Source: an uncultured Methanosarcinales archaeon (GTDB lineage: Archaea; Nanobdellota; Nanobdellia; Woesearchaeales; CAYNLP01). Taken from it: DNA of 20,000 bases. The stretch covers positions 49,586 through 69,585 of the forward strand of contig CAYNLP010000003.1 in NCBI GenBank assembly GCA_964398115.1. Direction: 5' to 3'. The position numbers and the translations under genes are program-made. The notes beneath the pieces were generated by a model that did not search any database, was not told where the DNA came from, and was given only the letters and a program-made list of their open reading frames with translations. Below are positions 1-20,000 of this stretch, piece by piece (within the stretch, counting starts at the first letter, position 1; each line of letters opens with the position of its first letter).

Positions 1-114
1 CATCTTCATCCCTACGATTTTCATCCCTACGTCTTCAAACCTGTTTAGAATTTCTCCAGTTAACCCTCTTCTTACACCATCTGGTTTGATTAGGACTAGA
101 GTTCTTTGTATCAT
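1..114 (-). CDS. ndk: Nucleoside diphosphate kinase, N-terminal part (runs off the window)
   Basis: Not in the ORF track. Manual translation from ATG at 114 gives [38 protein letters not shown], the typical NDK N-terminus (RTLxxIKPDGV). TAATG overlap with the rpl24e stop; conserved archaeal L7Ae-S28e-L24e-ndk order. Confidence 0.95.
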
Positions 115-305
115 TATGCTTTCTTACCTTCTTTGATCATATGGTATTCTTTAGTCCACTTTGTAGTTCGTGGTTTCCTATCTAGTTTTAGCATGTTTTT
201 CTCACATTTGCTACTGCAGAAATCCATTATACTTCCTGATTTAGTTACTAGCTTCTTTCCTGTTCCGGGTTCAATTTCTTCTTTGCAAAAGTCGCATACA
301 GCCAT
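114..305 (-). CDS. rpl24e: 50S ribosomal protein L24e (eL24)
   Basis: CDFC...IEPGTG...FCSSKCEKN...RKPR..KWT zinc-binding signature; operon context. Confidence 0.97.
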
Positions 306-308
306 TTT

Positions 309-548
309 TTATCTACCTCTTCCTCCTCTACTTAACGGTCTTGCTTCGATGTCGGTTTCTCGAAGCATTAAGGTGTCTCCTACCCTTACAGGTCCTCGAA
401 CGTTTCTTCGGATTGTTTTGTTCTTATCTTTTCCTTCTAATATTTTGCACCTGACTTGAGTGGCTTCTCCTTTAGTTCCTGTTCTTCCTACTACTTCTTC
501 CACTTTTGCTGGTACTGCTTCCGAAAATGGATCTTCTTGATCTGCCAT
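309..548 (-). CDS. rps28e: 30S ribosomal protein S28e (eS28)
   Basis: [21 protein letters not shown]...[25 protein letters not shown] matches the eS28 consensus. Confidence 0.97.
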
Positions 549-552
549 TTTT

Positions 553-855
553 TTACAGTTTCTTCATAACGTCTGCAGCTTCGCCAGGTTCTGTTATCGC
601 AACGCTTGCTGTTGCGACGTTCAAGCCTGCAGCTGCTCCCAATTCTTCTTTGCTGGAGACTGTTACGTGTTTCACATCTTTTTCTTCGCAAAGTAGTGGT
701 AAGTGCATAACTACTTCTTCTGGTTCTACGTCATCTGCAGAGACTACTAGCTTTGCTTCTCCTCTTTCAATGGCGTTTGTAGTTTCGTTTGTTCCTTTTC
801 TAATCTCGCCTGTTTTCCTTGCGAGTTCAACTGCTTCATATGCTTGATCACTCAT
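553..855 (-). CDS. rpl7ae: 50S ribosomal protein L7Ae (eL8), K-turn-binding protein
   Basis: [42 protein letters not shown]...[20 protein letters not shown] at 866-872. Compact 100-aa form. Confidence 0.97.
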
Positions 856-959: not shown

Positions 960-1652
960 TTACGGTCTGTTATAGACAGAATTTTGAACTTGATCATTTA
1001 TTTCCTTGTACTTTTGCAATCTAGGCAGGGCAAAGTCCTCAACATACAAATCTGCAATTTTATCCACGGTTCCTTTCATAAGTGGTTCCATAGTTTTAGA
1101 TGTTACGTATCCAGTGGCTACCGCTGCTAAAGCACTCTCCACTAAATCGTTTCCAATCCAAATTCCAAGCATTCCTCCAGCAACTCCTAGGAAGCCACCT
1201 CCAAAAATTTTTCCTGCACTGTATCTCAAATCACGCCAATCTTCTCCCAGTGAATCTACAGTATCTTTACTTCTTACAGATTCAAATAATCTTTCTTCTT
1301 CATTTTCTACTAAGTTTTCAAGTCCATCAGCAAAAACGGTTTGACTTTCTACACTTCCTCGAACATTTATCTCAGGCTCGTTCAATCCTGGGATATATTT
1401 ACCTAAAGCGGATTTAATCATTATCTCATCCAAGCACCATCTATAATCTTCGATAGCACTATCAGATAAACTCTCAGGATTTACGTCGTGTTCAGAAATG
1501 AATTCATCTGCGTCAATTTCTGTTTGGATTCCAGAATCTATATACATGCGAAGCGTTTGAGTATTTACACTGGCCGAAGATTTCAAATTCTTTAATAACC
1601 CGCCGTATTCTCTAGATAATTCTCCTCTTTCTGAATTTGGTATGTATCGCAT
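960..1652 (-). CDS. Hypothetical protein with a C-terminal glycine-rich hydrophobic hairpin (probable membrane protein)
   Basis: Long ORF with acidic composition like its neighbours. ATG at 1652 is preceded by GGAGGGGAGG and preferred over TTG 1673. Hydrophobic stretch IFGGGFLGVAGGMLGIWIG...ALAAVATGYV. No family recognised. Confidence 0.7.
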   Translation of the reverse strand: MRYIPNSERGELSREYGGLLKNLKSSASVNTQTLRMYIDSGIQTEIDADEFISEHDVNPESLSDSAIEDYRWCLDEIMIKSALGKYIPGLNEPEINVRGSVESQTVFADGLENLVENEEERLFESVRSKDTVDSLGEDWRDLRYSAGKIFGGGFLGVAGGMLGIWIGNDLVESALAAVATGYVTSKTMEPLMKGTVDKIADLYVEDFALPRLQKYKEINDQVQNSVYNRP

Positions 1653-1687
1653 CCTCCCCTCCACTCTCTTCAAACAAACGCGTTTAG

Positions 1688-1720: not shown

Positions 1721-1744
1721 GAAGTGTTTAAATTTTCAAATAAA

Positions 1745-2605
1745 ATGCTGTTATTTTCGAAAATAATGGGAGGATTGGCACTTTTCTTTGCTATGTTGGA
1801 AGATTTAAGGACGAGAGAAGTGCCTGATTGGATAAGCTTTGGTCTTATTTTCATATCTTTGGGTACCGCGGCTATCTTCTCAATACATCTAGAGGATTAT
1901 TCTTATATTGTGAAAAGCGTTAGTGGATTAATTATTTGTGTAGGTATTGCTTACTTAATGTATTACACAGCCCAATGGGGCGGGGGTGATTCAAAACTTT
2001 TAATGGCGATGGGAGCGTTGTTCGGCATCGACATTTTCAATCTTACGAGGGTACCAAACTTGATTATCCTTCTAATTAACATTGCAATCATAGGAGCTAT
2101 TTACGGAATTTCATGGAGTTTGTATGCTGCTTTGAGGAATTGGCAAAGTTTCAAGCAAAGTTTCAAAGAAAAAATTTATAGTGATCGTTTCAAGAAAATC
2201 CGCAAATACAATATTATAATTGTCATCCTATTCTTAGTAGCGTTGTTTTTCGTTCCTTTCTCCTTCAAAGCCTTATTGGTGGCAGTTATCTTATTCTTGT
2301 ATGTAACACTCTACCTTTGGGCTTTCATAAGAAGTGTTGAAGAAAGTTGTATGATAGTTGAAAGAAAAGTTGAAGATCTTGTCCCAGGAGATTGGATAGC
2401 GGAAGAAGTAAAGATTGATGGTGAACACGTCATCGGAGTTGAAGATCTCGGTATTAGCGAAAAGCAAATTAAGAAAATCAAGGATAGTGATTTAGAAAAA
2501 GTTGTTGTTAGAGAAGGAGTTCCTTTCGTTCCAAGCTTCTTCATAGGTTACACACTCACTTTATGGATTGGAAACTGGATTGCTTTACTAGGGCAACCTC
2601 TCTAA
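1745..2605 (+). CDS. Prepilin/prearchaellin peptidase, A24 family (FlaK/PibD-like)
   Basis: Multi-pass membrane protein with both catalytic aspartate motifs (EDLRTREVPD and WGGGDSKLL) and the archaeal C-terminal part (L.PGDW...EGVPFVPSF). Start ATG 1745 chosen from TATA spacing; the ORF track uses GTG 1724. Confidence 0.9.
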   Translation: MLLFSKIMGGLALFFAMLEDLRTREVPDWISFGLIFISLGTAAIFSIHLEDYSYIVKSVSGLIICVGIAYLMYYTAQWGGGDSKLLMAMGALFGIDIFNLTRVPNLIILLINIAIIGAIYGISWSLYAALRNWQSFKQSFKEKIYSDRFKKIRKYNIIIVILFLVALFFVPFSFKALLVAVILFLYVTLYLWAFIRSVEESCMIVERKVEDLVPGDWIAEEVKIDGEHVIGVEDLGISEKQIKKIKDSDLEKVVVREGVPFVPSFFIGYTLTLWIGNWIALLGQPL

Positions 2606-3100
2606 ATGCTTAGTAAGATAGTTTTCTTCATCTCCTTCAACTTTTTCTTTCTCACTGGTCTTAACAGGTCTCTTGGGTTTTTTATCTTCACTGTGCCCTA
2701 TCAAGTCTGCCTGGTCTTTAATACTCTTCTGAGCTTGTTCTAACACGCCGTCGTCAGCTCTCTCAGCATCCCATTCTAATCTTAAGTTGTCACTTTCCGA
2801 TCTTGTAACCACGTCCATGTGTAAGTGACTATCAAACATGTCTCCCTCATTAACTATAATATTAGTCCCTTCTGCCCCTAATTGTTCAAACAAAATGCTA
2901 GCGACGACGTTACCCACTTGGAACATGTGCTGTACCGCTTCATGAGTTAAATCATCAAAACTTTCTGCGTGTTCCTTACTATAAACACGAACGTGGCCTT
3001 TAGTTGCGGGCTTAGCTGGTAAAACCACATGCGCATGAGGATCGGTATATATTATCATACCCTCTCTTTCCTCAATGCTATTACAAACTTGACAATTCAT
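2588..3100 (-). CDS. HIT-fold protein, degenerate (triad HLHMD)
   Basis: CQVC, PATKGHV, KEH, GAEGTNIIVN and SHLHMDVVTR; ATGA overlap with the upstream HIT gene. Confidence 0.85.
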   Translation of the reverse strand: MNCQVCNSIEEREGMIIYTDPHAHVVLPAKPATKGHVRVYSKEHAESFDDLTHEAVQHMFQVGNVVASILFEQLGAEGTNIIVNEGDMFDSHLHMDVVTRSESDNLRLEWDAERADDGVLEQAQKSIKDQADLIGHSEDKKPKRPVKTSEKEKVEGDEENYLTKHLERLP

Positions 3101-3891
3101 TTGAACAACCTCGAGACTTTATCTAAGTCAGCATCTTCAGAATTTTCTAATTCGTCCTCAGACTTGATATCATCATCTTCGTCAGCCATTTCTTTCTTAT
3201 TTACTTCTTGTAATTGAGAGCTTAATTCATCAATATTTATATCTTGAAATACTTGTTTAAGTTGAGGATTCTCCTCTATTAATTGTTTGAACTTTTCAGG
3301 TTTTTCTGCAATTAACTTCCTAACTTCAGGGTTCTCTTCTAAAACCATTGCAAGCTGTTCTTTAGCCTTTTCTCCACTTTCTTGGTCTGGCATTTTTCCT
3401 TCTTGTGCTAGTAAAGCTTGCATAGCCTGCCCTACTCCTTTTTGTAAGGGTTCTAACAATTGTGATTGATCTACACTTTTTTCTGCGAGCGTGAATTGAT
3501 CTAAGCCATCACCACTATCCCTAGGTATTATGTGAAACAAGAAATGGGGGGATTGTTGCCCTGCTACTGCACCGTTTGCCATGAAGACTGTCGTTCCTAA
3601 GCTAGGCAGTCCTTTTCTTATAGAAGCGCACAAATCCTTGGTTAGTTTAAACATGTGTTTAGAAGTTTCTTGTGGGATGACAGGAAGAACAGGATAATGT
3701 TCTTTCGGTAATACTAAAATGTGGCCTTTCGTTGCCGGTCTTATATCCATTATGGACAGTATTTTATCATCTTCATACACTTTTTTGCTGGGAACTTCTC
3801 CATTTACTATCTTGCAGAATATACAATTTTTCTTCTGCAATTCAGCTATTTCCTCTTCACTCATGTTAGAAAGTTCTTCTTCCGTTACCAT
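3097..3891 (-). CDS. HIT-fold (Hint-like) protein, degenerate (triad HFLFH), with acidic helical C-terminal extension
   Basis: NCIFCKIV.GEVPSKKVYEDD, DIRPATKGHILVLPKEH, NGAVAGQQSPHFLFHIIPR. Start ATG 3891 is about 25 nt from a TATA box; the ORF track uses GTG 3906. Confidence 0.9.
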   Translation of the reverse strand: MVTEEELSNMSEEEIAELQKKNCIFCKIVNGEVPSKKVYEDDKILSIMDIRPATKGHILVLPKEHYPVLPVIPQETSKHMFKLTKDLCASIRKGLPSLGTTVFMANGAVAGQQSPHFLFHIIPRDSGDGLDQFTLAEKSVDQSQLLEPLQKGVGQAMQALLAQEGKMPDQESGEKAKEQLAMVLEENPEVRKLIAEKPEKFKQLIEENPQLKQVFQDINIDELSSQLQEVNKKEMADEDDDIKSEDELENSEDADLDKVSRLFK

Positions 3892-3915
3892 GTCTTTTAA
3901 AGACACGAGTTTTTG

Positions 3916-6687: not shown

Positions 6688-9309
6688 ATGGAAGCTTACA
6701 GCAAGGATAAAAAAGAGGTGTTAGACTTCTATAGCTCTTCAGAAAGTGGTCTTTCTAGCAGTGAAGCCGAACAGCATTTAGAAAAGTATGGTGAGAACGA
6801 GATTGAACAAGGTGAAGAAATAAGCCGACTGGAAATATTTCTAGAACAGTTCAAAAGTTCTATAGTGTGGGTTTTGATAGTAGCCACAGTAATATCGGCA
6901 TTGCTAGGTGAATGGATTGATGCAACCGCTATCTTGATAATACTGGTTTTGAACGCAATACTTGGATATATACAAGAGTTTAGAGCAGAGAAATCAATTG
7001 AAGAGTTGAAAAAGCTTGCCGCGCCAAAAGCCACAGTTTTGAGAGATGGTAAACCAGTTGAGGTTGAATCTAAAAATGTAGTACCAGGAGATGTTTTATT
7101 ATTAGAAACTGGTGATAAAATCCCAGCTGATGCTAGAATTCTTAACTCTGACAGTTTACAAACTCAAGAAGCTGTACTGACAGGAGAGTCAGTCCCTGTT
7201 AAAAAACATTCTGACACTCTCACTAATGGTTTAGAGGTTGGAGAACGTAAAAACATGATTTTCTCAGGTACTGTCGTGACTAAAGGAAAAGGTAAGGCAG
7301 TAGTTACCGAAACAGGTATGCATACTGAAATGGGGCAAATCGCTGATATGATACAAAGCAGCGGAGAATCTATGACTCCATTACAGGAGAAACTGGATGT
7401 TTTAGGTCACAAGCTGGGAATTTTAACTTTAGTTGTTTCTGCTGTTGTTTTCTTAGTAGGTGTTTTCAGCGGTAGAAGCATGTTAGAGATGTTCTTGATA
7501 GCGGTTAGCTTAGCTGTCGCAGCTATTCCTGAAGGCCTTCCGGCAGTCATTACTATATCCCTTTCGTATGGGGTTCAGAGGATGTTGGATGAAAACGCGT
7601 TGGTTAGGAGACTTCCTAGCGTGGAAACTTTGGGGAGTACTACTGTTATTTGTACGGATAAGACTGGCACTTTAACTCACAATGAAATGACTGTGACGAA
7701 GTTGTTTGTAGATGATAGAGTTGTGGATGTGACGGGTCGAGGTTACGAACCTGACGGAGAAGTTCAAGGTAAAGTTGATCCGATGGTTTTCAAGATTGGC
7801 GCTTTGTGTAATGATTCAAAGTTGGTAGAAGAGGAATGGACTGTCGTTGGAGATCCAACAGAGGGTTGCCTCTTAACAAGTGCTCGAAAAGCTGGTTTGA
7901 ATGAGAAAAAGTTAGAGGATGAAGAACCTCGGATTGGTTCTATTCCATTTGATAGTAAAAGAAAGAGAATGACTACTATTCATAAAACTGGTGATGGCAG
8001 GTTTGCTTATATGAAAGGGGCTCCGGAAGTTGTTTTGGATAGGTGTGATAGGCGTTTGGTCAATGGTGAAGTTAAAGAACTAACTGATAGTGATAAGGAA
8101 GAGATATTGGAAGCTAATAAAGATTTTTCTCAAAACGCTCTGCGTGTTCTCGGATTTGCTTACAAAAAAATTGAGGAGAAAGAAGAGTACGGTGAAGAAG
8201 ACGAACAGGGCATGGTTTTTGCTGGATTACAAGGCATGATTGATCCTCCTAGAGAAGAAGTTAGAGAAGCTATCAAGAAGTGTAAGAAAGCAGGTATTAA
8301 AGTTATCATGGTTACGGGTGATCATAAAAACACTGCGCTTGCCATCGCGGACGAACTTGGTATCGAGGGCAAGGCTTTGGAAGGTAAGGATATGAAGAAC
8401 ACTAACTTGGAAGAAGAAGTTGAAGATATTGGCGTTTTTGCTCGTGTGAGTCCCGAGCATAAATTGGCTATAATCAATGCTTTGAAAGATAATGGTCATA
8501 TCGTGGCTATGACTGGTGATGGTGTTAACGACGCTCCTGCTTTGAAGAAGAGTGATATCGGTGTTGCAATGAGGATAACTGGTACGGACGTGGCTAAGGA
8601 AGCAAGTGAGATGATATTAACTGATGATAATTTTGCTAGTATTGTCAACGCTGTTGAACAAGGAAGAGGAATTTATGACAATATCAAGAAGTTTGTTAAT
8701 TACTTACTTTCTAGCAACTTCGGTGAGGTTTTAGCTTTGTTTTTAGCTATGATTATTGGATTTACTGGTTCAGATGGTAATCTTATAGTTCCTTTCCTCG
8801 CGTTACAGTTGCTATGGATTAACTTAGTTACTGATAGTTTACCAGCTCTAGCTTTAGGGGTGGATCCTCCAGAAAAAGATATAATGAGTAGGAAACCTCG
8901 AGATCCAGAAGAGAAAATTATTAATTCTAACATGGCTTGGAACATCGGGGTTATCGGAGTGTTAATAGCTATCCCTTCATTAGTCTTGTTCGACTTATAT
9001 TTGCCTTTGGAAGAAAAGGCTCGTACGATGGCAACTACTAGCTTGGTCGTGATGGAAATTGTTAGGTTACAGATGATTAGACAGAGTTATCATGTAGAAT
9101 TGGGGGACAATCCTTACTTGATATGGTCTGTGCTTGGAGTTTTGACTTTACAGTTTATTGCTGTCTACACACCATTGAACAGCATTCTTGGTTTCGTCCC
9201 ACTAGAGTTAGTAGATTGGGCATTGGTTGGTATTGGCGGTGCTCTCATGCTAATAGTTGGATTGGGAGCTAGTGGTTTGATAAAGAGATGGACTCATAAA
9301 AGAGATTGA
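6688..9309 (+). CDS. P-type cation-transporting ATPase, type IIA (SERCA-like Ca2+ pump)
   Basis: TGES, IPEGLP, DKTGTLT phosphorylation motif, KGAPE, MVTGDH, TGDGVNDAPALK. Membrane motifs SSNFGE (M5) and WINLVTD (M6). Confidence 0.96.
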   Translation: MEAYSKDKKEVLDFYSSSESGLSSSEAEQHLEKYGENEIEQGEEISRLEIFLEQFKSSIVWVLIVATVISALLGEWIDATAILIILVLNAILGYIQEFRAEKSIEELKKLAAPKATVLRDGKPVEVESKNVVPGDVLLLETGDKIPADARILNSDSLQTQEAVLTGESVPVKKHSDTLTNGLEVGERKNMIFSGTVVTKGKGKAVVTETGMHTEMGQIADMIQSSGESMTPLQEKLDVLGHKLGILTLVVSAVVFLVGVFSGRSMLEMFLIAVSLAVAAIPEGLPAVITISLSYGVQRMLDENALVRRLPSVETLGSTTVICTDKTGTLTHNEMTVTKLFVDDRVVDVTGRGYEPDGEVQGKVDPMVFKIGALCNDSKLVEEEWTVVGDPTEGCLLTSARKAGLNEKKLEDEEPRIGSIPFDSKRKRMTTIHKTGDGRFAYMKGAPEVVLDRCDRRLVNGEVKELTDSDKEEILEANKDFSQNALRVLGFAYKKIEEKEEYGEEDEQGMVFAGLQGMIDPPREEVREAIKKCKKAGIKVIMVTGDHKNTALAIADELGIEGKALEGKDMKNTNLEEEVEDIGVFARVSPEHKLAIINALKDNGHIVAMTGDGVNDAPALKKSDIGVAMRITGTDVAKEASEMILTDDNFASIVNAVEQGRGIYDNIKKFVNYLLSSNFGEVLALFLAMIIGFTGSDGNLIVPFLALQLLWINLVTDSLPALALGVDPPEKDIMSRKPRDPEEKIINSNMAWNIGVIGVLIAIPSLVLFDLYLPLEEKARTMATTSLVVMEIVRLQMIRQSYHVELGDNPYLIWSVLGVLTLQFIAVYTPLNSILGFVPLELVDWALVGIGGALMLIVGLGASGLIKRWTHKRD

Positions 9310-17867: not shown

Positions 17868-19357
17868 TTAATTCACCTTTTCGAGTCCTATTTCTTCTGC
17901 TACTTCGTGTACGCTTTCTTCATCTAGTTCTGGAGCTGCTCTGGCTAGGATGGCTGTGTTTTTCCTCAACCCTATGTTTGTTCCTTCGGGTGTTTCTGAT
18001 GGGCAGAGCCTTCCTAGGTGTGTTGGGTGGAGGGCTCTAGCTTCGAAGTTTTCTTGTTGGCTTGAAAGTGGACTGACCACTCTTTGCAAGTGGCTTTGTA
18101 CTTGTAGGAAGTTTAGTCTTTCCATCCTTTGGCTGACTCCTTTTCTTCCTCCTACCCAGTTTCCGGTTGCCATGCTGCTGTATAAGCGTTGGGTGAGGAG
18201 TTTTTCTCTTATTATTACTTTGATGCTGGGTTGTTTGCCTCTTTTGACTAGTCTTTGGAAGTTGTATAAGAGGTCGCCTACGAGTACTTTGAGGTTTACT
18301 CTGAACAGGTCTGCCATGAGGTCTCCTGCGAGTTTAACTCTTTTGTTGTGGTAGTGGTCTTTATCGTGTGTTTCCATTTCTCCGTTTGCGACTGAAATGT
18401 ATTTTTTCATCATTTTGCACAGGTTGTGTGCTTTCATTATTCGGTCGTCTGGTTCTCCTCCGACGTGTGGGAGTAGGTATTTGTCTAGTATTTCTCTCAT
18501 TCTTTCCAGCCTGACTTCTTTGCTCTGTGTGACGCCCATTTTTTCGGCCATGTATTCTAAAGCGTCCTCTTCACTTTTTATATCGCTGAATTCATGGATG
18601 TTGACTAGGACTTCGCTGTTTGTTCCTAGATCGACTTGTTCCATTATTTTATTGTCTTTTACAAGCCCGAGTGCTTTTATTACGACCATTAACGGCATTT
18701 TCTTTACTCTTGTGAAGGTTAAGTAGTAGATGCCGTCTTTTCTTTTTTCTAGGTTGTGTGGTATTTTGTAACTGCCTCTCTCGCTGAATATTTTTCCNNN
18801 NNNNNNNGGTAGTCGCTTACTCCACTGCTTGCTTCTTCAACCATTACAGTGTTGCTTGCGAGGTCTTCAATGTTTACGACAATCTTTTCACTTCCGTTGA
18901 TTATGAAGTATCCTCCTGGGTCGTCTGGATCTTCGTTGTTTTCTATTAGTTCTTCTCTATCCATGTCGCTTAGGTGGCAGTATTTGCTTTTGAGCATGAT
19001 CGGCAGGTTACCGATTTGTGTTTTTAGCGTTTCTCTTTTTACGCCGTTGACGTGGCTGCTTACTTCTAAATATATGGGTGCTGAGTATGTTAGTTGTCTG
19101 AGTCTGGCTTCGTTTGGCGTTATTTCTCTTTTGCTGCCGTCAGCTTCTGTCATTTCTGGTTTGCCAACCCAAATGTTTTCTAAGTGGATTTCGTATTCGT
19201 CTACGTTTGGCGGTATGATGGTTGGTTCTACTTCTCGGTTGTCATCCACTATTCTTTGCATTTCTTTATCTACGAAGTGGTTGAAACTTTCGATGTTGGC
19301 TTTTACGATAGAGTTGTCTTCGAAGTATTTCCTTAGTAGGGTTCTTGCTTTATTCAC
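17868..19357 (-). CDS. rpoB2: DNA-directed RNA polymerase subunit B'' (Rpo2N), one gene interrupted by a 10-N assembly gap
   Basis: ORF 18749-19357 (P.EARLRQLTYSAP, DPGGYFIINGSEK) and ORF 17868-18698 (DKDHYHNKR, FEARALHPTHLGRLCPSETPEG.NIGL) are consecutive parts of Rpo2N. After the Ns the second frame is open from 18797 (GKIFSERGSYKIPH...). GTG start at 19357. Confidence 0.95.
18798..18807. other. Scaffold gap (10 N)
   Basis: Literal run of n. The true gap length must be 2 mod 3 to keep rpoB'' in frame. Confidence 0.99.
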
Positions 19358-19919
19358 GGATTACACTCCTGTAAAATTGTACTTGTCCTGCTGTTGGGCT
19401 GCTTCTTGTTATTTCGATGACGTCGCCTTCTTCGACGTCCATGTGCCGAATTGCAGGGTCGTCTTTCCTGATTTTCGGCATTTCTTTCGTGGTTGCTTGG
19501 AATTCTTCATATACTTTTTCTGCTTCTTCTTCACTTAGTTTATTGTGTTCTGGGATTAATTCGTGATGGATTTGTTCTCCTTCTTTTCTTCTTTCTTCAA
19601 CTTCTACGCCGAGTTCTTCTAAGAATTGGTTTATCATTTCGTCTTTTAAGTCGCTGGTTGATAGTTCTATACCGAATTCGTATTTGGCGTAGTCTTTTAT
19701 CTCGGCTTTTGTCATGCGTTCAACTTCGTTCTTTGTTATGTGTACGTCTTCGGCTTTTCTTTCTGCTCGAGCTTCTTCCTCGAGTTCTTCTAAGAATTGA
19801 TCTATCATTTCCGCCTTTTTGTCATTTAGAGAAAGACTTATATCGTATTCTTCGTCAGCGTACTCTTTCAATTCTTTCTTAGTTTTTTTCTTGAGTTCGC
19901 TTTTTGTTTCTTTCGCCAT
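19350..19919 (-). CDS. rpoH: DNA-directed RNA polymerase subunit H (Rpo5) with an approximately 115-aa N-terminal repeat extension
   Basis: C-terminal HELIPEHNKLSEEE...MPKIRKDDPAI...GDVIEITRSSPTAG...YRSV is RpoH. ATG 19919 has SD GGAGG at 19926-19930; the ORF-track start at 19967 lies inside the tRNA. Confidence 0.95.
   Translation of the reverse strand: MAKETKSELKKKTKKELKEYADEEYDISLSLNDKKAEMIDQFLEELEEEARAERKAEDVHITKNEVERMTKAEIKDYAKYEFGIELSTSDLKDEMINQFLEELGVEVEERRKEGEQIHHELIPEHNKLSEEEAEKVYEEFQATTKEMPKIRKDDPAIRHMDVEEGDVIEITRSSPTAGQVQFYRSVIRE
19611..19907 (-). repeat. Two in-frame 126-bp (42-aa) repeats in the rpoH N-terminus (19782-19907 and 19611-19736)
   Basis: TKSELKKKTKKELKEYADEEYDISLSLNDKKAEMIDQFLEEL vs TKNEVERMTKAEIKDYAKYEFGIELSTSDLKDEMINQFLEEL, 24/42 identical by hand count. 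Exact 19-bp DNA match cgagttcttctaagaattg at 19610 and 19781. Confidence 0.92.
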
Positions 19920-19936
19920 GTATAGCCTCCATAAAG

Positions 19937-20000
19937 TGGGCCGGGCGGGATTTGAACCCACGACCACTCGGTTAAAAGCCGAGTGCTCTATTGCCCAACA
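19937..20000 (-). tRNA. tRNA-Lys(UUU), 5' end outside the window, CCA not encoded
   Basis: Minus strand: AGAGC-A-CTCGG-CTTTTAA-CCGAG (anticodon arm, TTT), GTGGG-TTCAAAT-CCCGC (T arm), CCGGCCC-A (3' acceptor strand and discriminator). Confidence 0.93.

Follow-up and report, generated by a model that had tools for sequence, protein, structure and literature searches.

Archaeal RNA polymerase (RNAP) and its eukaryotic counterpart differ in a contact with downstream DNA. The archaeal subunit RpoH (Rpo5) is described as a bare assembly domain, whereas Rpb5 in eukaryotes has an N-terminal domain that touches downstream DNA (PMC3906176), a contact reported as missing from the archaeal elongation complex (PMC11162788). 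The place that the Rpb5 jaw takes up is also where the small subunit Rpo13 binds, next to Rpo5; it is partly occupied by the jaw in eukaryotes and by an insertion of the beta' subunit in bacteria (PMC2675907). In Pyrococcus, an RpoH fused to a foreign N-terminal domain is reported to have lost that domain rapidly (PMC3906176). The present analysis concerns a 20,000-nucleotide stretch of an archaeal draft genome (assembly GCA_964398115.1, contig CAYNLP010000003.1, positions 49,586 to 69,585 of the forward strand), hereafter the window, in which rpoH encodes 189 residues: a standard RpoH core preceded by two copies of a small acidic module, predicted to adopt a helix-extended loop-helix (HeH) type of fold. 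The same module was found on ribosomal proteins, on a bacterial-type sigma factor and on proteins that resemble membrane proteins. An earlier interpretation made from the letters alone (the sequence-only reading) had suggested that this RNAP may have gained a jaw-like module, and its claims are revisited below where the results bear on them.

The C-terminal part of the protein is a member of the RpoH/Rpo5 family by sequence, predicted fold and operon position. Residues 118-186 are recognised by the Pfam model PF01191 (RNA_pol_Rpb5_C) with 83.9 bits, its cut-off being 23.5 (E = 6.6e-24), the NCBIfam RpoH equivalog NF007129 clears its threshold of 83 bits with 88.5, and in phmmer searches positions 4-81 of the solved Pyrococcus and Thermococcus Rpo5 chains align to residues 111-188 (E = 8e-17). 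The core modelled by AlphaFold2, with a predicted local distance difference test score (pLDDT) of 90-97, was matched by Foldseek to chain 8cro_H (E = 4.3e-8, template modelling (TM) score 0.84, root-mean-square deviation (rmsd) 1.4 Å over 70 columns), and all 47 Foldseek matches of the predicted model at E <= 1e-3 were Rpo5/H or Rpb5 chains. The C-terminal 79 residues thus correspond to the standard core of archaeal RpoH/Rpo5 (PF01191, NF007129; structures 8cro, 4qiw and 2waq). The departure lies in length: the family is characterised by the assembly domain only, of about 75-88 aa, and the window protein has 189 aa with a 110-residue N-terminal extension, a variant feature that leaves the family membership of the core unaffected.

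Extension and core are read in one uninterrupted open reading frame (ORF), a genuine in-frame fusion of two helical repeats to RpoH, and the 189-aa length and the good Shine-Dalgarno sequence claimed by the sequence-only reading were confirmed, GGAGG standing 6 nt before ATG1. That reading would have fallen had translation started at an internal codon near the RpoH domain. The only in-frame ATG, GTG or TTG codons within the ORF are ATG1, TTG17, ATG38, ATG69, ATG95, ATG147 and ATG160; the stretch from codon 95 to the core has none, so that a canonical start cannot yield the core by itself. Initiation at codon 95 would leave some of repeat 2 in place and initiation at 147 or 160 would cut into the core, and an RpoH of normal length is therefore not available from any of these codons. 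Upstream, the in-frame GTG codons lie inside or beside a tRNA gene, which makes ATG1 the sensible start. Codon preferences in the extension (GAA 22 against GAG 3, AAA 12 against AAG 4, GAC 6 against GAT 2) resemble those of the operon (GAA 115 against GAG 9, AAA 109 against AAG 60, GAC 55 against GAT 14), as does the GC content at third codon positions (GC3; 0.37 in the extension, 0.34-0.41 in the operon), and these shared features argue against a foreign chimeric piece.

The gene is at the head of a standard archaeal RNAP operon. Pfam assignments on the same strand give the order rpoH, rpoB'', rpoB', rpoA', rpoA'', an 86-aa ORF, NusA-KH and S12; the 86-aa ORF, which received no family scan, looks L30e-like by eye. 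The rpoH stop codon (19350-19352) lies within an 8-nt overlap with rpoB'', whose GTG start is at 19357. A run of 10 N at 18798-18807 inside rpoB'' splits that frame into ORFs at 18749-19357 and 17868-18698.

The search for genomes with a close rpoB'' (67-69% identity) found only two, both Candidatus Woesearchaeota metagenome-assembled genomes (MAGs; L001 and L002). Their rpoH genes occupy the same place and encode 82 and 81 aa, aligning to residues 112-189 of the window protein at 49-51% identity, and by this alignment the extension is a clean insert, about 109 residues long, that follows residue 2. Conservation, on which the sequence-only reading had partly staked its proposal, was not borne out in the two closest genomes, as the extension is absent from the RpoH of both. 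The window proteins are also shifted towards acidity: the isoelectric point (pI) of the RpoH core is 4.85 against 9.4-9.6 in L001 and L002, that of rpoB'' is 4.65/7.8 against about 9.0, and GC content is 40% against 49-51%. This shift probably reflects adaptation to salt.

A profile search over proteins of 44-331 aa returned 372 RpoH homologues, the best 120 of which were examined. Of these, 105 measure 70-88 aa and 15 measure 96-149 aa, in keeping with the claim that archaeal Rpo5 is normally about 75-85 aa long, and none carries the 110-residue extension of the window protein. Eleven of the 120 (P0046, P0069, P0070, P0080, P0084, P0086, P0113, P0114, P0119, P0120 and P0130) have lysine-rich, low-complexity N-terminal tails of about 20-38 aa, and the remaining four of the 15 long forms look like over-called starts running into upstream sequence. 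The tails, in other Woesearchaeota/Nanoarchaeota-type archaea, resemble the window extension in being N-terminal additions at the same point of RpoH; they differ in being basic, of low complexity and probably unfolded, whereas the extension consists of two acidic modules that are predicted to be folded. No mention of such tails was met in the accessible portions of the literature searched. Within the same portions, neither an extended archaeal RpoH nor such a module on ribosomal proteins is described, and no other RpoH with the module was found in the searches made; the earlier impression of an undescribed architecture still holds.

The repeats themselves are clear at the protein level. A hand count of residues 5-46 against 62-103 reproduced the 24 of 42 identities and the 57-aa period noted before; BLASTP aligned the two 57-aa halves in register, at a period of exactly 57 aa (20/38 identical, E = 6e-12), and a MAFFT alignment of 47 columns contained 25 identities. 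Repeats in the DNA of rpoH are short and weak, so that the repetition is visible in the protein only and the duplication is not recent. Repeat 2 shares 32 of 43 positions with the module of P0002 and repeat 1 shares 29 of 46 with that of P0010, two of the carrier proteins described below; as the window copies (25/47) are less alike than each is to these, a recent duplication internal to rpoH was considered and is not favoured. The basic patch KKKTKK pointed out in the first repeat is present, residues 1-19 containing 8 K and 4 E by hand count, within an otherwise acidic protein (pI 4.77).

For repeat 2, AlphaFold2 run on a 53-aa piece with an 18-row alignment (pLDDT 84) predicted a short helix followed by a 12-residue helix (positions 15-26), a 9-residue extended loop (27-35) and a second 12-residue helix (36-47). 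The full-length model likewise has a helix, extended loop and helix in both copies; in module 1 the helices span residues 6-10, 14-25 and, after the loop, 34-56, the second long helix thereby running on to residue 56. In this model, with a predicted TM score (pTM) of 0.42 and pLDDT below 50 at residues 110-117, the modules are shown as tethered to the core and not packed on it; acidic linkers join the copies in a bead-like row for which no fixed arrangement is predicted. The predicted size and topology, two helices and an extended loop (9-10 residues in this module) in 35-45 residues, are those of the SAP, Rho_N and HeH domains.

Sequence comparison leads to the same neighbourhood at lower strength. 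A Pfam search of the 103-aa N-terminus, expected by the sequence-only reading to return Rho_N, SAP or HeH, did bring up HeH (E = 0.029) and Rho_N (E = 0.74), together with DUF6669 (E = 0.001), but all were sub-threshold. Scanned copy by copy at E <= 1, the 18 aligned module copies gave SAP for six (best 5e-4), MCM_WH_arc for four, Rho_N for three (best 0.0048), and HeH and Ish1 for one each; HTH_19 and Dark_CARD were further weak Pfam matches to module regions. NCBIfam searches of the module-bearing parts had a best E-value of 0.0027, and none came near its cut-off.

Structural searches of the PDB with Foldseek listed SAP domains at TM scores of 0.50-0.57, all with E-values of at least 1.8. 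The highest-scoring, the SAP domain of Hcc-1 (2do1; TM 0.57), superposed with an rmsd of 6.9 Å over 53 columns, but closer fits were obtained for E1B-AP5 (1zrj; 2.0 Å, 38 columns) and Tho1 (4uzw and 1h1j; up to 2.2 Å, 38-39 columns), the range for 1zrj, 4uzw, 1h1j and 4rec being 2.0-2.5 Å over 38-42 columns. Entries for FAN1, 3'hExo and DEK were also among the matches, through parts that we take to be their SAP domains. In the viral BFVD library, three of the 50 matches shown were Rho_N and two SAP, at TM scores of 0.6-0.78, with probabilities near 1 and a best E-value of 0.035. Residues 1-110 found no usable match in the ESM Atlas; residues 60-106 reached scores of 0.75-0.78, with Rho_N or SAP on 11-22% of the members of two clusters, a weak lead. 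The lack of a significant fold E-value is attributable to the module being too small, at only about 45 residues. At the level of prediction, an HeH-type fold class is supported and membership of any named family is not established: of the earlier SAP/Rho_N/HeH-like assignment, the predicted fold and the best-superposing SAP and Rho_N structures stand, but the sequence falls below the family cut-offs. The module resembles SAP, Rho_N and HeH-LEM (PF02037, PF07498, PF12949) in size, in its predicted topology of two helices with an extended loop and in being appended to many hosts, and the structures that superpose best on it belong to these families, as do the commonest of its weak Pfam hits; it differs from them in its strong acidity, its sub-threshold scores and its own consensus, MTKDEIKEYAxEEYGIELSTNDLKDEMIDQF.

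The distribution of the module is the strongest correction to the view of an RNAP-specific gain. A phmmer search with the 103-aa N-terminus against 1.84 billion representative sequences yielded 16 proteins at E <= 1e-3, and a word-based protein search yielded four, two of them additional, for a total of 18 candidates, none of which is an RpoH. With a hidden Markov model (HMM) built from the two window repeats, 16 of the 18 were accepted as carriers (independent E <= 1.3e-10). P0007 (3237 aa), a repetitive protein with 25 Rx_N stretches and no module-HMM domain, and P0014 (1171 aa), with independent E-values of only 0.003-0.12, were dropped. The census, window RpoH included, stands at 21 copies in 17 proteins.

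Nine of the 16 hosts outside the window belong to nucleic-acid machines. Eight are ribosomal proteins (two S6e, S17, L22, an S4-domain protein, two L34e, one of them also with KOW, and one KOW/L14e-like), in which the module is always C-terminal. The ninth is P0006, a protein of 577 aa with three N-terminal copies, in which the 370-position RpoD model covers residues 204-572; judged from these matches, its first approximately 200 residues are an add-on to a complete bacterial-type RpoD. Through it, the module sits near the DNA channel of a second kind of RNA polymerase. Five further hosts (P0002, P0003, P0010, P0013 and P0018) have hydrophobic segments, assigned by eye from their sequences, and the other two are the free-standing P0011 (52 aa) and P0009, a protein of 130 aa without a family assignment. 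Across the window, L001 and L002, the rpoH of the window is the sole carrier. The module is thus shown to be a lineage-restricted, promiscuous add-on that is not specific to RNAP, its presence on ribosomal proteins, sigma-70, membrane-type proteins and a stand-alone 52-aa protein overturning the notion of a gain by the polymerase alone.

Eighteen of the 21 copies, one per protein plus both window copies, were aligned. Mean column identity is 63%; T14, K15, S31, K36 and M39 are invariant and six more positions nearly so. In the model, the N-terminal ends of both long helices carry such residues, T14-K15 and K36. A tandem cassette common to RpoH and P0006 was rejected, as no copy-to-copy correspondence was seen (window repeat 1 against P0006 repeats 1 and 2, 25/47 and 20/47; window repeat 2, 24/47 and 21/47), and a phage origin was set aside, as 50,697 phage records searched by tblastn with the 103-aa N-terminus gave no match. 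As a separate observation, P0008 and P0012 each combine an L34e domain, a KOW/L14e-like part (identified by eye in P0008) and the C-terminal module in one polypeptide, which suggests fused ribosomal protein genes in that lineage.

Set against the described systems, the extension is comparable in place and not in kind. It is not homologous to the Rpb5 jaw: Pfam found no Rpb5 N-domain in the window RpoH at E <= 10, and Rpb5 chains align in Foldseek over the C-terminal 66-70 columns only. Of the claim that a jaw-like module had been gained at the attachment point of RPB5, the position stands by topology (PMC2675907, PMC3906176, PMC11162788), but the identification as a jaw does not. As in eukaryotic Rpb5, an extra N-terminal part is attached to the same conserved assembly domain and, by topology, is placed at the downstream DNA channel's far end (PMC3906176, PMC2675907); unlike the jaw, which is one compact domain of about 130 residues, that part consists of two small flexible modules without sequence or fold similarity to it. 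Rpo13 of Sulfolobales is likewise a small, helical, lineage-specific addition beside Rpo5, with a proposed DNA role (PMC2675907). It differs in being a separate subunit with a helix-turn-helix, where the window addition is fused to RpoH and HeH-like. The extension is likened to the jaw and to Rpo13 by position alone.

The best explanation of these observations, offered tentatively and as falling a little short of an even chance, is that the extension is a flexibly tethered HeH module making generic contact with nucleic-acid backbones at RpoH. The module would be a SAP/Rho_N-like unit whose contact is independent of sequence, each of its two helices offering the conserved residues of its N-terminal end, Thr-Lys in one and Lys in the other. 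On RpoH, both copies would be suspended at the lower face of the channel for downstream DNA, at the Rpb5 jaw/Rpo13 locus, where a linker of about 15-20 residues would let both reach that locus and the downstream duplex, adding hold on downstream DNA or nearby nucleic acid; on ribosomes the corresponding contact would be with RNA. In non-acidic relatives the lysine-rich RpoH tails may do the same job, and the folded module, which would replace them in this acid-shifted, probably salt-adapted proteome, may be their salt-tolerant counterpart. Three observations favour nucleic-acid contact: the predicted fold is SAP-like, Lys and Thr are conserved where the helices begin, and nucleic-acid machines make up most of the hosts.

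Several results weigh against this explanation. The RpoH fusion is a singleton from one draft genome, compared with 17 proteins for the module family. The two nearest genomes have RpoH of 81-82 aa without the extension, and no second RpoH with the module was found among the best 120 of the 372 homologues or in searches for longer forms; these searches rest on shared words, and a protein with both parts should have ranked top. The window is a draft scaffold; 543 nt separate the rpoH stop from the N gap downstream of it. As to the fold, no SAP, Rho_N or HeH match reaches its Pfam gathering score in the N-terminus or any of the 18 copies, MCM_WH_arc matches four of these about as well as SAP does, the 18-copy profile searched against PDB sequences found no HeH protein (best, a designed homeodomain, E = 0.039), and Foldseek gave no match of the module at E <= 0.001 in the PDB or BFVD. 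The module cores are strongly acidic (net charge -5 or -6, pI 4.25 each), five hosts resemble membrane proteins by their hydrophobic segments, read by eye, and in the S6e, L14e, L34e and S4 hosts the module follows a long poly-acidic linker. Such linkers would serve a protein ligand on a tether at least as well as they would serve a nucleic-acid binder, and together with the acidic cores and the membrane-like hosts they fit a tethered protein-binding tag about as well.

That tag is a serious rival and the strongest of the alternatives, although we consider it less likely than not. The module would be a protein-protein adaptor, or address tag, carried on acidic linkers and binding a common partner or membrane-anchored copies of itself, so as to gather RNAP, ribosomes and membrane proteins; on RpoH it would recruit a factor or localise the polymerase, with no DNA contact. 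It accounts for one and the same module, negatively charged and in several hosts on a poly-acidic linker, being attached to RpoH, RpoD, eight ribosomal proteins of both subunits and five hydrophobic-segment proteins. To our knowledge, the ribosomal hosts share no single common site on the ribosome. Against the adaptor stand the lack of any known or proposed partner, the nucleic-acid-binding SAP domains as best structural look-alikes, the Lys and Thr conserved where the helices start, which would fit backbone contact, and the putative nature of both the membrane status of the hydrophobic-segment hosts and the side that the module faces. A complex prediction for two copies of the module scored 0.01 against a mark of 0.42, a value that counts neither for nor against binding.

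It is less likely still, and quite improbable, that the extension has no specific binding function and is a tolerated acidic appendage, spread by recombination in a salt-adapted lineage and fixed by chance. The singleton status of the fusion, the short RpoH of the closest genomes and the acid shift of the window RpoH core and rpoB'' relative to L001 and L002 would all agree with it. Five invariant and six near-invariant positions over 18 copies on unrelated hosts, a confident fold prediction (pLDDT 84) and the nine of 16 hosts drawn from the transcription and translation machinery speak against it; in addition, the rapid loss of a foreign RpoH N-terminal domain in Pyrococcus (PMC3906176) argues that such additions are not neutral.

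That the long ORF is an artefact of chimeric or erroneous assembly, or of an internal start, with the cell making a short RpoH, is highly improbable: a draft assembly with a 10-N gap in the next gene and the absence of an identical or near-identical protein from the protein collections searched could point that way, but the GGAGG before ATG1, the lack of start codons from 95 to the core, the operon-like codon preferences and GC3, and an uninterrupted frame in which both repeats match, at E <= 1e-23, an HMM with 16 of its 18 rows from other proteins all count against it.

Coordinates are collected in Table 1; the E-values given there for the two copies refer to the 18-row module HMM, whose two remaining rows are the window copies themselves. 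The tRNA gene upstream matches RF00005 with 36.2 bits over model positions 14-71 of 71, its 5' end being cut by the window, and ends 17 nt from the rpoH ATG; ARAGORN did not call a tRNA at 19937-20000 because the gene is incomplete at the window end. Its anticodon loop, read by eye, is UUU (Lys). In L001 a tRNA-Asp (1871-1945) lies about 290 nt upstream of rpoH, and ARAGORN found no tRNA in L002. Elsewhere in the window, the last rows of the table list further genes, and Pfam at E <= 1e-5 gave no match for three ORFs of 113-237 aa at 960-1673 (minus), 106-459 (plus) and 506-847 (plus).

Table 1. Positions of the rpoH gene, its parts and other features of the 20,000-nucleotide window.
Feature	Position	Strand	Basis and remarks
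tRNA gene	19937..20000	minus	Rfam RF00005; upstream limit of rpoH; 5' end beyond window
Shine-Dalgarno-like GGAGG	19926..19930	minus	6-nt spacer to ATG at 19917-19919; sequence read directly
rpoH	19350..19919	minus	189 codons and stop; two HeH-like modules (predicted), then RpoH core; ORF/translation
Module 1, residues 5-46	19782..19907	minus	more diverged copy; module HMM, independent E 8.7e-24
KKKTKK patch, residues 10-15	19875-19892	minus	within module 1
Acidic helical linker between modules, residues 47-61	19737..19781	minus	net charge -3
Module 2, residues 62-103	19611..19736	minus	near family consensus; module HMM, independent E 3.3e-26
Flexible linker to core, residues 104-110	19590..19610	minus	pLDDT; disorder extends to about residue 117
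RpoH/Rpo5 core, residues 111-189	19353..19589	minus	Pfam, phmmer, Foldseek
rpoB''	17868..19357	minus	adjoins rpoH downstream; Pfam Rpb2 domains 1-3
P-type ATPase	6688-9309		
UPF0182 family membrane protein, 912 aa	3913-6651	plus	E 1e-285
Two adjacent HIT-domain genes	2588-3906	minus	
Type IV prepilin-like peptidase	1724-2605		

With predicted folded modules here and lysine-rich tails in 11 of the best 120 homologues, new features seem to have arisen repeatedly at the RpoH N-terminus, next to the channel for downstream DNA, and the window supplies an archaeal RpoH with a part, predicted to be folded, added at the point of the missing Rpb5-DNA contact. A broader interpretation, which we regard as doubtful, is that the module is a common tag on the gene-expression machinery of acid-shifted tiny archaea and at least one bacterium. 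If this were true, RNAP would be marked through RpoH in the archaeon and through the RpoD N-terminus in the bacterium, ribosomal proteins of at least six kinds would be marked as well, along with several proteins anchored in the membrane, and the ligand, whether nucleic acid, a hub protein or membrane-anchored copies, would physically tie together transcription, translation and the membrane. It would also represent a further independent filling of the downstream-channel locus, beside the Rpb5 jaw in eukaryotes and Rpo13 in Sulfolobales. The broader outcome is a tightly conserved module, beyond the Pfam and NCBIfam models, common to RNAP, a sigma factor, ribosomal proteins and membrane-type proteins, which offers a testable way into the organisation of transcription and translation in very small, probably salt-adapted cells.

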